Assembly (NCBI GenBank): GCA_048938445.1
Contig: JBHLME010000100.1
Span: 1 to 16,363, forward strand
From: Promethearchaeota archaeon
GTDB lineage: Archaea; Asgardarchaeota; Lokiarchaeia; Sigyniarchaeales; SOKP01
Direction of reading: 5' to 3'
DNA length: 16,363 nt
Position 1 is the stretch's first letter. Every line of letters starts with the position of its first letter. Position numbers and translations under genes: made by a program. The notes below the pieces were generated by a model. The model saw nothing but the letters and a program-made list of their open reading frames with translations, made no database searches and was not told the origin of the DNA. This document shows positions 1-13,140 of the stretch, one piece after another.

Positions 1-66
1 TCTGATAAAGAAGCTGATTTTTTAAATAAATTCTCTGATAAAGAAGCTGATTATTTTAAAAAATTC
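1..66 (+). repeat. In-frame 33-bp tandem duplication (at least 2 copies; may continue left of the window)
   Basis: 1-33 tctgataaagaagctgattttttaaataaattc versus 34-66 tctgataaagaagctgattattttaaaaaattc: 30 of 33 positions identical. Encodes SDKEADFLNKF / SDKEADYFKKF. Confidence 0.9.
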
Positions 67-627
67 TATTATAAAGGGGTTTCAGCCATTTTTTTCGTAT
101 TTGATTTATCTCAACCAGAAACTTTTGAAAGCTATCAAAAGCTTATTAAAAAGGCATGGAATGAGGGTTTATTAAAAAAGTGTCCTGTACTGATAATTGG
201 GAATAAACTTGATTTAGTAATAAATCCAAAAACAATTGATAGACAAAAATATCGAGAATTTGTTAAAAAAGAAGGTTTATTAGGATATATTGAATTAAAT
301 TCAAAGGGTAATATTCATCCTTTAATAAAAGAAATTCCCCAAATTATTCAAACTAATTTAAAAAAGAATTATCAAGTTAAATTCTTAGTGAACAGCAAAG
401 AATTTGAAGAAATTAGAAGATCTGCTAAAATTTCTCATCAAACGAGATCTGAATTTATTCGTGCTGCAATAAGAGATAAAATACGAGTATTAAATTCTCA
501 AGAACAGGATTTGGATAGACCTCAAGAAATTCATGAAGATAAATTAAGATTGGAAGAGCTGAAGTATATTCGAGAAGTGTTAGAAAGAATGGAAAAGAAA
601 GAAAATAAATTAAAAGAAATGAGATGA
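1..627 (+). CDS. 5'-truncated small GTPase (Ras/Rab-like) fused to a C-terminal ribbon-helix-helix (CopG/MetJ/Arc-type) domain and coiled coil
   Basis: Frame +1 translated by hand has no stop from 1 to 624: SDKEADFLNKFSDKEADYFKKFYYKGVSAIFFVFDLSQPETFE...CPVLIIGNKLD...LGYIELNSK...YQVKFLVNSKEFEEIRRSAKISHQTRSEFIRAAIRDKI... The stretch YYKG-xx-IFFVFDLS-xxETF and the G4 motif NKLD (202-213) are Rab/Ras-type. 370-483 has the strand-helix-helix pattern of an RHH domain. The track's 388..627 ORF is only the 3' end. Confidence 0.85.
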   Translation, partial: SDKEADFLNKFSDKEADYFKKFYYKGVSAIFFVFDLSQPETFESYQKLIKKAWNEGLLKKCPVLIIGNKLDLVINPKTIDRQKYREFVKKEGLLGYIELNSKGNIHPLIKEIPQIIQTNLKKNYQVKFLVNSKEFEEIRRSAKISHQTRSEFIRAAIRDKIRVLNSQEQDLDRPQEIHEDKLRLEELKYIREVLERMEKKENKLKEMR

Positions 628-4566: not shown

Positions 4567-5751
4567 ATGATGGATATCAACCATATAAAGAAGGTAGTAG
4601 TAGTTGGTTCCGGAGTAATGGGTTATGGAATCGGCCAAGTTGCTTTAATGGCAGGATTTAACGTTAATTTAGTTGACATTAAGGATGAAATTGTCAGTAA
4701 TGGTGTTGAAAAGATTAAAGAAGGATTACAAAAAGTTAAAACAAAGGGAAAATTAGCAGAAGATGTTTCAATTGAGGATCTAATGGCAAGATGTCAAACA
4801 TCAACGGATTTAGCTTCTGCGGTTAAAGATGCGGATTTTGTTTTTGAAGCTGTTGCTGAAAAGATCGAAATAAAGAAAAATGTCTGTGAAACTGTGATGA
4901 AAGATTCACCATCTCACTGCATTTTTGCCTCAAATACATCAACATTTAGAATAACGGATATTGCTGCGAATTCAAATAAACCTGAACAAGTTATTGGAAT
5001 GCATTTTTTCCTTCCAGTCATCCTTCAATGCTGTGTTGAGGTGATGAAAGGTGAAAAAACTTCAGATGAAGCATTGGATATTGGTGTGGAAATGGGAAAA
5101 AGATTGCCTTGTCTTAAGGGAAAGAGACTTTCCGTTCGAATTGAAAAAGAAAGCCCCGGATTTATAGCAAATAGGTTACTCATTCCCCCAAATATATATA
5201 ATAATTGGGTTTTTGACCAAGCATTTGAAAAAGGCATTCCATGGGAACAAATAGATGCTGATGCTGGGAATTTAACACCAATGGGACCTTGTGAATTAGC
5301 TGATTATCTAGGATTAGATGCTAGTTATAATTCCATGAAAAGTTACGAAAATATATTCTCTAAAGAATTTACTCCGGGAAAAATTCTCACGAAATTAGTT
5401 ATAGAAGGAAATCTGGGAAAAAAAACGGGTAAGGGTTTTTATGATTGGTCAAAAGGCAAACCAGTAATAGATTTTAGTAATAAAGCAGGGATGTATCAAC
5501 CTGAAATGGTAATGGCAATAATGTTAAACGAGGGTTGTAAACTACTAGAAGAGGGTGTAGTGCCTGGTTATAAAATCATTGATGATGTGATGTTATCGGG
5601 AACTAGCATTCCTGGACCATTTGGTCCTGGAAAGAGAAATTATGAAAAATGGTCAAAAATGCTAGAAGAATTTGTAGAAATCAGTGGTAAGAATTATCTA
5701 AAACCTTGTGAATTGATGAAATCTGGGGAATTTAATAAAATGCGAAAATGA
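4567..5751 (+). CDS. 3-hydroxyacyl-CoA dehydrogenase (NAD-binding domain plus two C-terminal dimerisation-type domains, archaeal type)
   Basis: Rossmann VVGSGVMGYGI; FEAVAE...K; ASNTS; GMHFF; PGFIANR; PMGPCELADYLGLD; GNLGKKTGKGFYDW; second C-domain NEGCKLLEEGV...ID...GPF. Confidence 0.93.
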   Translation: MMDINHIKKVVVVGSGVMGYGIGQVALMAGFNVNLVDIKDEIVSNGVEKIKEGLQKVKTKGKLAEDVSIEDLMARCQTSTDLASAVKDADFVFEAVAEKIEIKKNVCETVMKDSPSHCIFASNTSTFRITDIAANSNKPEQVIGMHFFLPVILQCCVEVMKGEKTSDEALDIGVEMGKRLPCLKGKRLSVRIEKESPGFIANRLLIPPNIYNNWVFDQAFEKGIPWEQIDADAGNLTPMGPCELADYLGLDASYNSMKSYENIFSKEFTPGKILTKLVIEGNLGKKTGKGFYDWSKGKPVIDFSNKAGMYQPEMVMAIMLNEGCKLLEEGVVPGYKIIDDVMLSGTSIPGPFGPGKRNYEKWSKMLEEFVEISGKNYLKPCELMKSGEFNKMRK

Positions 5752-7590
5752 CTAATTTGAATTAATAATTTCAATTTCATTTTCCATAATATTATATAAA
5801 GTATAGAGGAAATTATCAATTTCATTTTGCATTTGAAGTATTAGATTATCGTATACACCATTATTTTTCTCTAAAGCACGCATTATTCTATCAACTCTCT
5901 CAACAATTTCTTTTTTGAGATTTTCTGAAGGTTTAACAATTGGTAAATGTCTGATCATGTATTGATTTAAATTTATTGTTGTTCCTTTTTGGTTGTTTAT
6001 TCCATACGTGCAGTAAAATTTTATCAATTTAGAATTAAGAACAGCACATAAATATTTCAATTCATCAGTATCATCATGTAGTAATGAATAAATTGATGAT
6101 GTAAAGCACATTCGTTCTTTTGTAAAAATAGCTTCTGGAATAATATTATTGTGTTTAATTAAGAGTCTTGGATTTTCATAATACTCATAATTTTTACCTT
6201 TTAAGATTGAAGGATCAATTCGGTCAAGATCAAATGATTTGTTTTTTTTTATGAAATAATAAGAAAAATCCTCTTTAGCATTCACAAAAATACAATTATA
6301 ATTAAGATTGTTTTTGATTAATTTCCTAATTGCTGCTAAACCTTTATCTTCTTCACCACGAATCATTTTTGGGAAATCTTTTACATTCAAGTAATTTAAA
6401 TTTCCTAATTTTTCGATTTTATTTATTATTTGGAGTTGTTTAGAAGTTGGTTTTATTCTTAGTCTATTAAGTTTAATTGTATCATTGTTACAATATGGAC
6501 AATGATAATCAAAAGAGTAAACAAAAATTTTTTTTGATTTCACGCATATTGAACAATGAGAATTCAAGCAAGCTCGAAGTTCATCAAATTTCTGATTTTT
6601 ATATGTTATTATTTTAGTTTTAGGGTAATTATAAACATCTAAGTTATCATTTATTCCATTTTTTTTATCATAAATTATGATTTGAACTTCATTTGTAGCT
6701 TTTTTAAACAAGTTTGGACCAAGATCATATATTTTCTGAATATTCATATTTGAAAATAACTCCTTCCTAAAATGAATATATCCTTGCCGTAAAAGAAAGC
6801 TTTTTGGAATTAAAAAACAAATTAATCCATTTGACCACTCTAATGCTTTCAGCAGAAAGGTACAATAAATATCCTTATAAAATAAACCTTCTTTCTTTAA
6901 AATTTCTTTCTCCTTTGTTGAAAGAATATTCCCATAAGGAGGATTTCCTATTATAATGTCAAATTTTCCCTTAAAAGAAGATATAACACTATTTTTTATT
7001 TTTATATTAGATTTTAGACGAGTGATTATATTATACTCAGGACTTTTTGAAATTGAAACCCAAGAAAATAGTTTTAATTGACATAACTTAATCGCCTTCT
7101 CATTGATATCAAATCCATATAAATTATTGATTATAGTTTTTCTTAAATCCAAATCACTCATATTTGAATTATTTTTTTTTAAAATATCATATAAACAGTT
7201 TGCTGCACTTAAGAGAAAGACCCCTGCTCCACAAGCAGGATCTAATATTTTTATTTTTAATAAAGAATCATAAATACTTTTTTTTATTTCTAAATCAAGG
7301 TTATTAATTTCATCAAAATCGTTTAAATCAATATTATATTGAAAATTTCTTTCTAGAATTTTATTAATAAAAAGAAGAATTGACTTTTCAACAATAAAAT
7401 TAGAAAGCTCTTCATTTGTATAATAAACACCTTCAGACTTTCGGTTGCGATAACTTGTTAAAAAGGATAATTCTTGTGATTTAATTAAATTTAAGAAATC
7501 CTTTACCTTTTCTCCATTTTTTGCTTTTACCGCTTCTTCAAATGACTTAAAAAGCTGTGAATTTAAGTCAAACTCGTACCTATCATTCAT
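5752..7590 (-). CDS. N6-adenine DNA methyltransferase, gamma class (TaqI/Eco57I-like) with TaqI-type C-terminal specificity domain
   Basis: Motif X GVYYT, motif I ILDPACGAGVFL, motif II LYGFDIN, motif IV FDIIIGNPPY, and C-terminal LKYLCAVLNSKLI..Y...IRHLPI. No nuclease domain seen. Confidence 0.9.
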   Translation of the reverse strand: MNDRYEFDLNSQLFKSFEEAVKAKNGEKVKDFLNLIKSQELSFLTSYRNRKSEGVYYTNEELSNFIVEKSILLFINKILERNFQYNIDLNDFDEINNLDLEIKKSIYDSLLKIKILDPACGAGVFLLSAANCLYDILKKNNSNMSDLDLRKTIINNLYGFDINEKAIKLCQLKLFSWVSISKSPEYNIITRLKSNIKIKNSVISSFKGKFDIIIGNPPYGNILSTKEKEILKKEGLFYKDIYCTFLLKALEWSNGLICFLIPKSFLLRQGYIHFRKELFSNMNIQKIYDLGPNLFKKATNEVQIIIYDKKNGINDNLDVYNYPKTKIITYKNQKFDELRACLNSHCSICVKSKKIFVYSFDYHCPYCNNDTIKLNRLRIKPTSKQLQIINKIEKLGNLNYLNVKDFPKMIRGEEDKGLAAIRKLIKNNLNYNCIFVNAKEDFSYYFIKKNKSFDLDRIDPSILKGKNYEYYENPRLLIKHNNIIPEAIFTKERMCFTSSIYSLLHDDTDELKYLCAVLNSKLIKFYCTYGINNQKGTTINLNQYMIRHLPIVKPSENLKKEIVERVDRIMRALEKNNGVYDNLILQMQNEIDNFLYTLYNIMENEIEIINSN

Positions 7591-9787: not shown

Positions 9788-10399
9788 TTAAGTATTTAAA
9801 TAATTTGAACTTTCAACCGTAAGTAATTCACTCTTGATTAAATCTTGAAATATTAATTTTAAAATTGTTTCAAAAGAACTCAAAACTCCTTCACCATTTA
9901 AAGCAGTGGTATATTCGGCTGTCATATTTTGAAATCCATCATATCCAATTTCATTCATAAATTGCATTGATTTGAATTTATTAGGAAGATCTTGCTTGTT
10001 AAAACATATGACAATAGGTAATTTTTCAATACCAGTTTTATAATAAGAAAGGAGTTCATTCCATGAGATTAAATTTCTTTTATATGCTGTTATTTGAGAA
10101 TCTACAACATAAATTAATCCATCAACTCCTTTTAACGTAGTTGGTCGAGTAACAATATAGAAATCTTGTCCTGTCGTGCTATAAAGGTGAATTTTAAGCT
10201 GCCATTCCTCATTTTGAAAGATCATTGTCCCGTAGTCGAAAAAAAGCGTTCTATTTAACGTGTTTTCAACACTAATTAGCTCATCCAATTTTCCAAAATG
10301 ATTGAATAACGACTTAATTGAAGTAGTTTTGCCTGACAACGCAGGTCCGTAATATACTATTTTTATATTAATTGTTTTATCTAACGCGTTAATTATCAT
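9788..10399 (-). CDS. mglA: MglA-family small GTPase
   Basis: INIKIVYYGPALSGKTT (G1), NRTLFFD (G2 with the MglA intrinsic Arg finger), YSTTGQ (MglA-type G3 lacking Asp), LKGVDGLIYVVDSQ, NKQD (G4), TALNGEGV (G5). Confidence 0.85.
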   Translation of the reverse strand: MIINALDKTINIKIVYYGPALSGKTTSIKSLFNHFGKLDELISVENTLNRTLFFDYGTMIFQNEEWQLKIHLYSTTGQDFYIVTRPTTLKGVDGLIYVVDSQITAYKRNLISWNELLSYYKTGIEKLPIVICFNKQDLPNKFKSMQFMNEIGYDGFQNMTAEYTTALNGEGVLSSFETILKLIFQDLIKSELLTVESSNYLNT

Positions 10400-11628: not shown

Positions 11629-13140
11629 TCAGGAGGAAGTATGAACAACCAAACCTTTATCCTGTAATTTTTTTATGGATTTAGAAATCTTTAAATTGTC
11701 ATTATTTAATTTTAAATTTAATATTTTAAGAGAGGAAAGCAACCCCATAGATTCTGGAAGAAAATTAAGTTTATTACCACTTAAATTTAATACTTCTAAA
11801 TTGAATAAAGAACCAATCCATTCTGGTAGTTTTATGAAATTATTCCAACTTAGATCAAGAGTTTTAAGAGAAGTTAGATTCTTTAATGATTTTGGTAAAT
11901 CATTAAGCTGGTTATTATTTAATGTTAATTTTTCCAGGGAATTTAATGTACCAATTTTATCAGGGAGATGCTCAATATTATTATTTCCTAAATTCAAATT
12001 TTTTAAATTGGGTAAATTAGCAATCAATTCCTTAAGATTAAATTCATTCTTATTTCCGCTTAATCCCAATTTTTTTAGAGACTCAAAATTTTTTATCCAT
12101 TTTGGAATTATTGTTAAATTATTTAATCCGAGTTCTAGTTTTTTTAGTGAGGTGAGATTTTCCAGTGAATTCGGTATTTTAGTTAATTGATTTCCATGTA
12201 AATCTAAAACTTTAAGTGATGTCAAATTCGAAATTGAATTTGGAAGGAGTGTTAATTTATTGTGTCTTAAATCTAAAATTTCTAATAATTTTAAAAAACC
12301 AATAGAATTGGAAAGCTCGGTCAAATTATTGTATTTTAAATCTAAATATTTAAGAGCTTGAAGTTTGAAAATAGAATTAGGAATCTCTCGGAATTTATTA
12401 TAACTTAGATCTAAATATGCTAATGATGATAGATTACCAAGAGAAGTAGGTAATCCACCTATTTTTGTTAATTTTAAATCTAATTTATTAAGTTCTTTAA
12501 AGATTTTAAAAACTTCTGTTAGATTTTTTAAAATTTTCCATCCAAAAACATTATTATTAATATTTGATAAATTCAACTCAGTTATAAAACCATTTTCTAC
12601 ACTATAATCAAATTCAGTTAGAGTTTCTTTAATATATTGAATCATGAAATAATTATTAATGATATCAGCAAGTTGGTTAGTAGATAAATCATGAATTTTA
12701 TTTGTCTTTGTTAAATTCTTTATACTATCATTAAATTTTGCATTTTGAAAATTTTTAATTTTATCTATTAAAATTGCTTTAGCCATATCATCTTCTATTT
12801 CAGATATCATTGAAGTAATTGGAATTAAAAATTGTAATGATTTCTCATGATTTAATATCCATTCAAAAGGACCTAAAGCCTTTTTCTCAAATAAAGCTTT
12901 TAAAGTTCTTGCTGCTAAAATTCGAATTTGATCATCATTATCAGATATAAGCGAATTTTCTAAGAATAAAAAGACGGATTTATCTTTAATTTTAATTTTA
13001 TTTAAAATATCAATGCTTTCTAATCGAACTTCAATCTCATTGTTATTTTCTATTATAAAAATCAATAATTGAGCTGCATATGACTTATCAATTTTATTTT
13101 TTTTGAAATCTTTAAAAATCTGTTTTGGTGTTAATGCCAT
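11629..13140 (-). CDS. Leucine-rich repeat protein with N-terminal HEAT-like helical repeats
   Basis: About 12-13 repeats of 23-24 aa (LPxSIxNLxSLxxLDLxxNxLxx) from about residue 186. N-terminal EVRLESIDIL...FLENSLISDNDDQIRILAARTL is HEAT-like. No signal peptide or TM segment evident. Confidence 0.92.
   Translation of the reverse strand: MALTPKQIFKDFKKNKIDKSYAAQLLIFIIENNNEIEVRLESIDILNKIKIKDKSVFLFLENSLISDNDDQIRILAARTLKALFEKKALGPFEWILNHEKSLQFLIPITSMISEIEDDMAKAILIDKIKNFQNAKFNDSIKNLTKTNKIHDLSTNQLADIINNYFMIQYIKETLTEFDYSVENGFITELNLSNINNNVFGWKILKNLTEVFKIFKELNKLDLKLTKIGGLPTSLGNLSSLAYLDLSYNKFREIPNSIFKLQALKYLDLKYNNLTELSNSIGFLKLLEILDLRHNKLTLLPNSISNLTSLKVLDLHGNQLTKIPNSLENLTSLKKLELGLNNLTIIPKWIKNFESLKKLGLSGNKNEFNLKELIANLPNLKNLNLGNNNIEHLPDKIGTLNSLEKLTLNNNQLNDLPKSLKNLTSLKTLDLSWNNFIKLPEWIGSLFNLEVLNLSGNKLNFLPESMGLLSSLKILNLKLNNDNLKISKSIKKLQDKGLVVHTSS

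Follow-up and report, generated by a model that had tools for sequence, protein, structure and literature searches.

In NikR and PutA, two regulators of the MetJ/Arc/CopG superfamily, a ribbon-helix-helix (RHH) DNA-binding domain is located at the N-terminus, and the sensor part of the chain is metal-binding or enzymatic. Here we describe a gene at the left end of a 16,363-nucleotide (nt) stretch of DNA, called the window below (contig JBHLME010000100.1 of assembly GCA_048938445.1, Promethearchaeota archaeon; G000:C10:1-16363 in our numbering), whose product combines a Rab-like G domain with an RHH-like module. The family of this gene resembles NikR and PutA in its strand-helix-helix module, in short repeated or palindromic sites at its own promoter and in a second domain of the chain that could set DNA affinity. 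It differs from them in that the RHH domain is C-terminal, the partner is a Rab-like G domain or leucine-rich repeats (LRR), and an extra conserved helix is present. We consider it reasonably likely that this single chain of Rab-like G domain, RHH domain and terminal helix reads GTAC sites and represses its own promoter. ROCO proteins, whose architecture is LRR-Roc-COR, contain both of the building blocks that alternate at the N-terminus here, LRR repeats and a Ras/Roc-like G domain. However, a chain of the present family carries a G domain or LRR, never both, COR is not matched, and Pfam ranks Ras above Roc for the G domain.

Small archaeal RHH regulators that act at promoters have been described: CdrS and aCcr1 are stand-alone proteins controlling cell-division genes (PMC7439475, PMC9976878). 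As far as the available descriptions go, and the comparison is by description only, they carry no fused signalling domain. Small-GTPase paralogues are numerous in Asgard archaea (PMC10933270), and 31 small-GTPase-like matches were counted in the window's genome. The G domain studied here shares the Rab-like fold of Asgard GTPases such as Thor-Rab. The main text of the survey of the cultured strain MKD1 names single-domain GTPases and fusions to roadblock or longin domains, the rest being drawn as '?' (PMC10933270). The available part of that text does not speak of an RHH fusion, and the present family differs further by the general loss of the switch I Thr, the G3 Gly and the Gln that follows it. 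In bacteria, group 3 MglA is a small Ras-superfamily GTPase linked to a predicted DNA-binding regulator (PMC4316618). According to the accessible part of that report, the regulator (receiver and winged-helix domains) is the product of a neighbouring gene, not a fusion, and the G domain is of the MglA type, not Rab-like. A fusion of a Ras-superfamily GTPase to an RHH domain was not described in the literature searched, as far as the texts were available (including PMC11529989, PMC10933270, 10.1101/2020.10.19.343400 and PMC4316618); supplementary tables might list it.

Conservation of the GTPase-RHH fusion

Frame +1 of the window has no stop between base 1 and the TGA at 625-627, which is directly followed by TAA. 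It corresponds to the 3' part of the gene (208 codons and the stop, 1-627, plus strand) and is open at its 5' end. Since the window starts at base 1 of its contig, the gene is truncated by the contig end and not by biology; about 60-90 codons including G1-G3, and the promoter, are missing from the contig. At E<=1e-3, a search of 5.8 billion protein clusters returned 43 relatives, some 30 of which are full length (250-260 residues) and combine G domain, RHH-like part and terminal helix on a single chain; a longer variant of 317-356 residues has an insert of about 65 residues separating the G domain and the RHH. In species-representative genomes, a single unbroken frame runs from the P-loop to the terminal helix in 23 of 25 loci; one exception is masked and the other (L039) has its parts in adjacent frames. 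Public records call these proteins 'Rab family GTPase' or 'GTP-binding protein', or leave them without a name, and NCBIfam recognises a generic small_GTP domain only. Because public annotation names only the GTPase or GTP-binding part, the DNA-binding half has been overlooked.

The motifs that the preliminary description had quoted from the window are all present in frame +1: YYKG, VFDLS..ETF, GNKLD (199-213), YQVKFLV (370-390), SEFIRAAIRDKI and the terminal helix. The alternative GTG start at position 388 is the final codon of the YQVKFLV strand. Therefore, a separate 79-residue open reading frame (ORF) starting there would lack the strand, as had been argued for a true fusion. Contigs from public sequencing runs cover positions 15-372 (X1) and 47-1098 (X3) with no differing base, indel or joint. 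X1 and X3 come from two studies, and X1 is possibly the source sample. One X3 contig spans 47-435, that is, the entire junction between the G domain and the RHH, and neither a stop nor a frameshift was found between 213 and 370.

An assembly chimera or a frameshift joining two real proteins could also produce such a frame, and two observations are in its favour: the parts of L039 lie in adjacent frames, and the window contig ends inside the gene. Its probability is negligible, however, as the gene is continuous in 23 of 25 loci and in about 30 database proteins from independent assemblies, the junction in the window is confirmed by contigs of two studies, and a separate start removes the strand. 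Thus, the GTPase-RHH fusion is genuine, as the preliminary description had argued, and it is conserved; its homologues are not always encoded as two genes. In L039, which is the same locus as L049 (one contig), the frames of the G domain and the RHH are offset by one base within the first 350 bases, at an A-run at the KKN/Y junction. This shift is a sequencing error, a pseudogene or slippage.

The RHH domain lies at 361-501 (plus strand), with the strand YQVKFLV at 370-390, helix A at about 394-432 and helix B at about 445-501, as delimited by Pfam, models and structure search. An amphipathic C-terminal helix follows at 550-621 (plus strand; family alignment and models). Its consensus is LRLxELKKIRELLERLE, with the L, E, L, I, R and L invariant in the family, and it is a probable oligomerisation element. 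The strand residues QVKFLV are likewise invariant. Residues 121-168 of the window fragment matched the Pfam family NikA-like at 7.7e-5 (24.5 bits, cut-off 27), and the fragment matched RHH_1 at 1.2e-3 (20.2 bits, cut-off 20.5). In the module alignment A2 (19 sequences), NikA-like was matched by 19/19 sequences (best 2.3e-8), DUF6290 by 19/19 and RHH_1 by 14/19 (E<=0.1).

Two AlphaFold2 (AF2) models gave the same order of an extended segment and two helices. In the model of the relative P0002, the extended QVKFLV segment covers residues 179-186 and helices cover 187-199, 204-225 and 239-251. The model of the module alone, a monomer with a predicted local distance difference test (pLDDT) of 62.3, has helices at residues 12-24 and 29-47; it was used only for secondary structure and for a VIA-align search. 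Among 48,161 representative solved chains, RHH proteins took ranks 1-12, with structural Z of 4.4-5.6, and most of the top 25, with Z of 4.2-5.6, over model residues 2-50. The top RHH structures included the antitoxins Rv0298, MazE6, TacA and ParD2, together with TraM, NikR, Arc, CopA and SvtR, as well as PutA-RHH and AmrZ, both DNA-bound. A two-copy homodimer prediction of the C-terminal module (A2) scored 0.28 against a mark of 0.42 and gave no evidence either way. Altogether, an RHH fold of the C-terminal part, first proposed for the region 370-483, is well supported by the profile matches and by the predicted structure, which are in full agreement.

The best module matches are NikA-like proteins, TraM and RHH antitoxins, and autoregulation through operator repeats is typical of toxin-antitoxin and mobile modules. 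The RHH part might therefore be an antitoxin or a NikA-like relaxosome accessory. However, the conserved neighbours of the gene are metabolic genes and include no toxin, relaxase or integrase family, the position of the locus is stable over many genomes, and the module is joined to a G domain or LRR repeats. No cognate toxin gene was found adjacent to the gene in the relatives' loci or in the window, where an MFS transporter and a HATPase_c protein are present instead, and no relaxase or mobilisation family was found among the conserved neighbours or in the window. We regard such a role as very improbable indeed.

Palindromes at the gene's own promoter

When the DNA preceding the start codon was aligned for 23 loci, two conserved palindromes, (A)TGTAC-N7-GTACA(T), became apparent. 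Site 1 is located immediately 5' of a TATA-like TTTATAAAT box. Site 2 begins 49-54 bp downstream of site 1 and about 40-60 nt before the start codon. The core GTAC-N7-GTAC, 15 bp long with its GTAC tetramers 11 bp apart, was found 45 times in these 23 loci (246,759 bp), every time 40-113 nt before the start of the gene, and 22 of the 23 loci have the pair. Other spacings from N3 to N12 gave 0-3 matches each. After de-duplication, the element was found upstream of the gene in 38 of 42 loci with the strand residues Q-x-K, with 0 matches elsewhere in 376,512 bp. Of the four loci without it, three are truncated at a contig end and one is a true miss, leaving 38 of 39 testable loci. Five whole genomes with the gene contain 2-4 strict palindromes each, 1-2 of which are at this promoter, as compared with 0-2 for a reversed control. 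The palindrome, found once or twice per genome at the gene's own promoter, therefore marks this promoter and not a regulon. A partition system, in which an RHH protein and an NTPase act on repeats (as ParG or omega), was considered and set aside, the number of sites being 1-2 per genome and the Rab-like fold being non-polymerising.

Paralogues with another strand have another repeat, so that the family contains a second pair of strand and candidate operator. Stand-alone paralogues of the RHH-helix module with F-x-K in the strand (consensus KF[IV]K[VI]M[VL]) include one in the window's own genome (G000 C70:1923-2315, minus strand) and the genes of L094, L095 and L098-L102. GTAC-N7-GTAC was found at 0/8 of these loci and GATC repeats at 8/8, with 3-6 GATC placed directly after a TATA-like box and before the start, at a 9-bp period in 6/8 loci and with N6/7 spacers in 2/8. 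L-x-K paralogues are preceded by GATCATAAA-like or GGTCCATAAAG-like repeats. The residue that differs between the paralogues aligns with the Q of QVKFLV. By the alternation rule of the RHH ribbon (Arc, MetJ, CopG), this position would be DNA-facing.

The palindromes might also act in RNA, as a terminator-like hairpin after the upstream gene for a pyruvate formate-lyase (PFL)-like enzyme and as a hairpin in the 5' untranslated region. Site 1 of L018 does fold into a 9-bp hairpin (-7.9 kcal/mol, z -3.9). Site 2, on the other hand, is no better than shuffles in three of four loci (z +0.16 to +0.52), and the arms are kept as the sequence GTAC, beyond mere pairing. The 11-bp-phased array of L087 and the direct GATC repeats of the paralogues form no hairpin, and at non-syntenic loci there is no upstream PFL-like gene to terminate. 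A role in RNA is thus highly improbable.

The gene usually has a fixed position. The conserved order is AMP-binding enzyme, PFL-like glycyl radical enzyme, GTPase-RHH gene, CheR-like methyltransferase, steroid-reductase-like protein, HAD hydrolase and acyltransferase. In L015-L037 and L073-L081, the regulator invariably comes after an AMP-binding (acyl-CoA-synthetase-like) gene and the gene of a 786-residue PFL-like enzyme, all three sharing one strand. A radical S-adenosylmethionine (SAM) activase was not found among the annotated conserved neighbour clusters.

A profile search of 1.84 billion representatives found the module in only 57 proteins, always C-terminal. Its N-terminal partners are a Ras domain, LRR repeats (P0042, P0046, P0047, P0056 and P0058) or a short part. 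Between the PFL-like and CheR-like genes, an LRR or short form may stand in place of the GTPase form while the operator pair is kept, indicating that the N-terminal domain has been exchanged in place. The element also accompanies module genes in unrelated neighbourhoods, where it lies directly upstream of them and nowhere else in their surrounding 10 kb or so. In L079, an LRR form in such a neighbourhood, two sites flank the TATA-like box. The short forms L083 and L084, the latter from the window's genus, have a single site abutting this box, and L088 has one GTAC-N7-GTAC site. In L087 (G026:C156, about 4911-4958), five GTAC stand in exact 11-bp phase about 40 nt before a QIKFLV module gene of the 70-residue class, forming an array and not a pair. 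In L086, the site pair heads an operon in which an ORF resembling short-chain dehydrogenases/reductases (SDR) precedes the GTPase-RHH gene. Thus, the element goes with the RHH module, also where LRR or nothing stands in place of the GTPase.

Two further features of these proteins were observed. The LRR forms L068, L069, L071 and L072 have a conserved ORF of about 55 residues, starting M(T/A)QML(L/M)KKPE, as the first gene after the operator promoter, apparently co-transcribed with the LRR-RHH gene. A conserved element, approximately (I/L)P(S/A)HxNGxYLEKPxEEE, stands with a charged helix behind it on the N-terminal side of the RHH, both in LRR and short forms (P0046-P0049, P0056 and P0058) and in the long GTPase forms (P0032-P0041). 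P0048 has two copies, and in C70-type paralogues the element comes after the RHH; it has no Pfam match.

By GTDB families, the module is present in 52 of 400 genomes of the phylum: 50 of 134 in family f1, 1 of 1 in family f3 and 0 in the other families. At E<=1e-30, the gene itself was found in 3 of 40 close relatives. None of the five genomes from the window's genus (68-94% complete) gave such a match; one of them, G001, carries a short module-only form. The submitters' titles place the holders (L015-L039) in Promethearchaeota, Hodarchaeota, Hermodarchaeota, Thorarchaeota, Odinarchaeota and even Thermoplasmatales. Because the GTDB-based scan puts nearly all holders in one family, record titles are an unsafe guide to the spread of the gene.

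The RHH-like tail could instead be an oligomerisation or partner module of a cytoplasmic Rab-like GTPase, with another factor reading the palindromes, which would be co-inherited with the gene. Most loci indeed share one syntenic position after the PFL-like gene, and the RHH assignment gives sub-threshold or modest scores for single sequences. However, the element is also found with the module where the neighbourhood is unrelated or the N-terminal domain is a different one, a change of strand goes with a change of repeat among the paralogues, and the strand residues presumed to face DNA are invariant. Moreover, palindromic tetramers one helical turn apart suit RHH dimers of dimers, which use such sites in Arc, MetJ and CopG. 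We find co-inheritance with another reader unlikely.

Several observations nevertheless weigh against direct reading of the GTAC sites by the RHH and repression of the own promoter. The NikA-like and RHH_1 matches of the window itself fall slightly under the curated thresholds. The structural Z values are modest, under the tool's caution line of 8, and the module model has a pLDDT of about 62. Searches of PDB sequences with the module, as a single sequence or a profile, were not significant (best E 0.029 and 0.25). Since the window's copy lacks its 5' end and promoter, the operator is seen for relatives only; in the window's assembly (G000; 4.63 Mb, 256 contigs, completeness 96.5%, contamination 8.2%), eight single GTAC-N7-GTAC were found, a background level, and no paired site in the assembled part. 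The true miss, L082, is a 104-residue remnant with Q-x-K. The two sites are 49-54 bp apart in the GTPase forms, whereas the LRR and short forms show distances of 37-58 bp, and site 1 could also form an RNA hairpin. Finally, most loci share a GTDB family and a syntenic position and are hence non-independent; independent support comes from about six non-syntenic loci and from the paralogue classes.

The G domain and the window around the gene

The C-terminal two thirds of a Ras/Rab-type G domain are encoded at 55-312 (plus strand), corresponding to positions 64-146 of the 162 of the Pfam Ras profile. Residues 19-104 of the fragment matched Ras at 7.2e-9, above threshold, and Arf at 1.5e-6. The G4 motif, which confers guanine specificity, is at 199-213 (plus strand) and is found in all 31 rows of the family alignment A1, as GNKLD in 24 rows and as the variants GNRLD, GNKAD, GTNLD, GNKRD or GNKLE in seven. 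The P-loop GxxxxGK[ST] is present in 28 of the 31 rows, the remaining three being truncated. In the AF2 model of P0002 (pLDDT 78, predicted template modelling score 0.63), the G domain comprises residues 1-178. A Foldseek comparison of this model with the PDB returned Rab-family chains in all rows shown among ranks 1-50, with target-normalised template modelling (TM) scores of 0.71-0.81. The predicted fold of the G domain is thus closest to Rab.

Other residues of the G domain make gating of the regulator by a textbook GTPase cycle doubtful. In A1, the switch I position holds Thr in 2/30 sequences and Lys in 23/30. The glycine of G3 (DxxG) is kept in 1/30, the chimera-like P0038, and the residue following it is Asp, Glu or Asn, never Gln. 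The window itself contains only a part of this region. In the Ras superfamily, such losses predict guanine-nucleotide binding without a loaded-spring switch or Gln-dependent hydrolysis. As the P-loop and NKxD are kept, the domain probably binds guanine nucleotide. A canonical GTP/GDP switch is doubtful in this family because of the rarity of the switch I Thr and G3 Gly, and since the Gln is missing as well, a nucleotide- or partner-bound sensor is more likely than a fast hydrolysing switch. The preliminary description had presented the protein as a candidate GTPase-gated regulator built on a eukaryote-like switch, and this is not supported as stated. Its proposal of a DNA-binding one-component regulator, in contrast, gains strong new support, at the level of sequence, from GTAC-N7-GTAC at the own promoter, linked to the module and covarying with the strand. 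Because sister genes have LRR repeats or nothing in its place, the G domain is one of several interchangeable N-terminal parts and not the core of the device.

The left end of the window contains an assembly branch point or strain variant at positions 1-14 (plus strand), as seen in contigs of public runs. To the left of base 15, three runs share another sequence, in frame and with no stop over 30 letters; the window's own version of bases 1-44 is backed by a 55-nt unitig. Bases 1-14 make the first 22 residues resemble an 11-residue tandem duplication in the switch II region; this apparent duplication is the branch point or strain variant. The branch is probably the reason why the contig ends there. 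In positions 1-66, about eight extra switch II residues are present as compared with the relatives, at the same branch stretch. The missing N-terminus was not found elsewhere in the window's own assembly, which returned only paralogues of at most 43% identity. An exact 33-base window pattern gave 0 matches in metagenome contigs, and a protein-guided metagenome scan found one locus, L089, with 52% identity.

Downstream of the gene, the window encodes an MFS transporter, a HATPase_c protein and others, unlike the usual synteny of the relatives, and a close orthologue of the syntenic PFL-like gene is absent from the window's genome (best match 32%). Further along, the window contains a second small GTPase gene, Arf/Ras-like and 203 residues long (9788-10399, minus strand), and a gene for a 503-residue LRR protein (11629-13140, minus strand). 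A 612-residue Eco57I/MmeI-like N6 DNA methyltransferase with a TaqI-like specificity domain, type IIG-like, is encoded at 5752-7590 (minus strand). It may be relevant here, as the candidate operators consist of the short palindromes GTAC and GATC.

Proposed mechanism and its meaning for Asgard GTPases

Most likely, to judge from the conserved sites, the RHH reads the GTAC sites and represses its own promoter. RHH dimers would read the palindrome GTAC through the strand residues Q-x-K, and the two tetramers of a site, 11 bp or about one helical turn apart, would serve as one site for a dimer of dimers. In full-length relatives, site 1 abuts the upstream side of the TATA-like box, where the transcription factor B recognition element (BRE) would be, and site 2 would cover approximately the expected transcription start. 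It is from these two positions that we infer repression by the protein of its own promoter. The terminal helix would probably join dimers, a tentative assignment. More speculatively, the N-terminal domain, whether the G domain or, in the sisters, LRR or nothing, may set the affinity or the oligomeric state of the RHH. Because there are just one or two sites per genome, the main target would be the own promoter and the co-transcribed genes rather than a wide regulon.

A broader possibility, which we advance with clear reservations and rate as rather doubtful, is that Asgard archaea have a family of plug-in one-component regulators, in which a fixed RHH cassette is wired to exchangeable signalling domains of eukaryote-like type, a Rab-like G domain or LRR. 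Besides the RHH domain and the terminal helix, the cassette would comprise its own promoter, on which four GTAC tetramers stand in phase. Transcription would then depend directly on the nucleotide or partner state of a Ras-superfamily domain, and the operator would be determined by the strand residue in the Q position (Q for GTAC, F for GATC), giving a readable recognition code.

Asgard small GTPases have been studied as forerunners of eukaryotic membrane-traffic switches, but almost nothing is known of the processes that they control in their own cells. The family described here has a Rab-like domain and a DNA-binding domain in one chain, with a likely 15-bp target that can be read from genomes. 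A defined predicted site would give a direct and cheap assay of the role of the G domain, by measuring DNA binding with and without GDP, GTP or partners, and would require no cultivated host. Rules of RHH recognition could be tested on the small set of covarying strands and operators, and the swap of G domain and LRR at one chromosomal position, where promoter and RHH stay in place, is a clear case of natural shuffling of signalling-protein domains in the lineage closest to eukaryotes. The family appears to consist of RHH autoregulators whose input domain, Rab-like or LRR, is without precedent.

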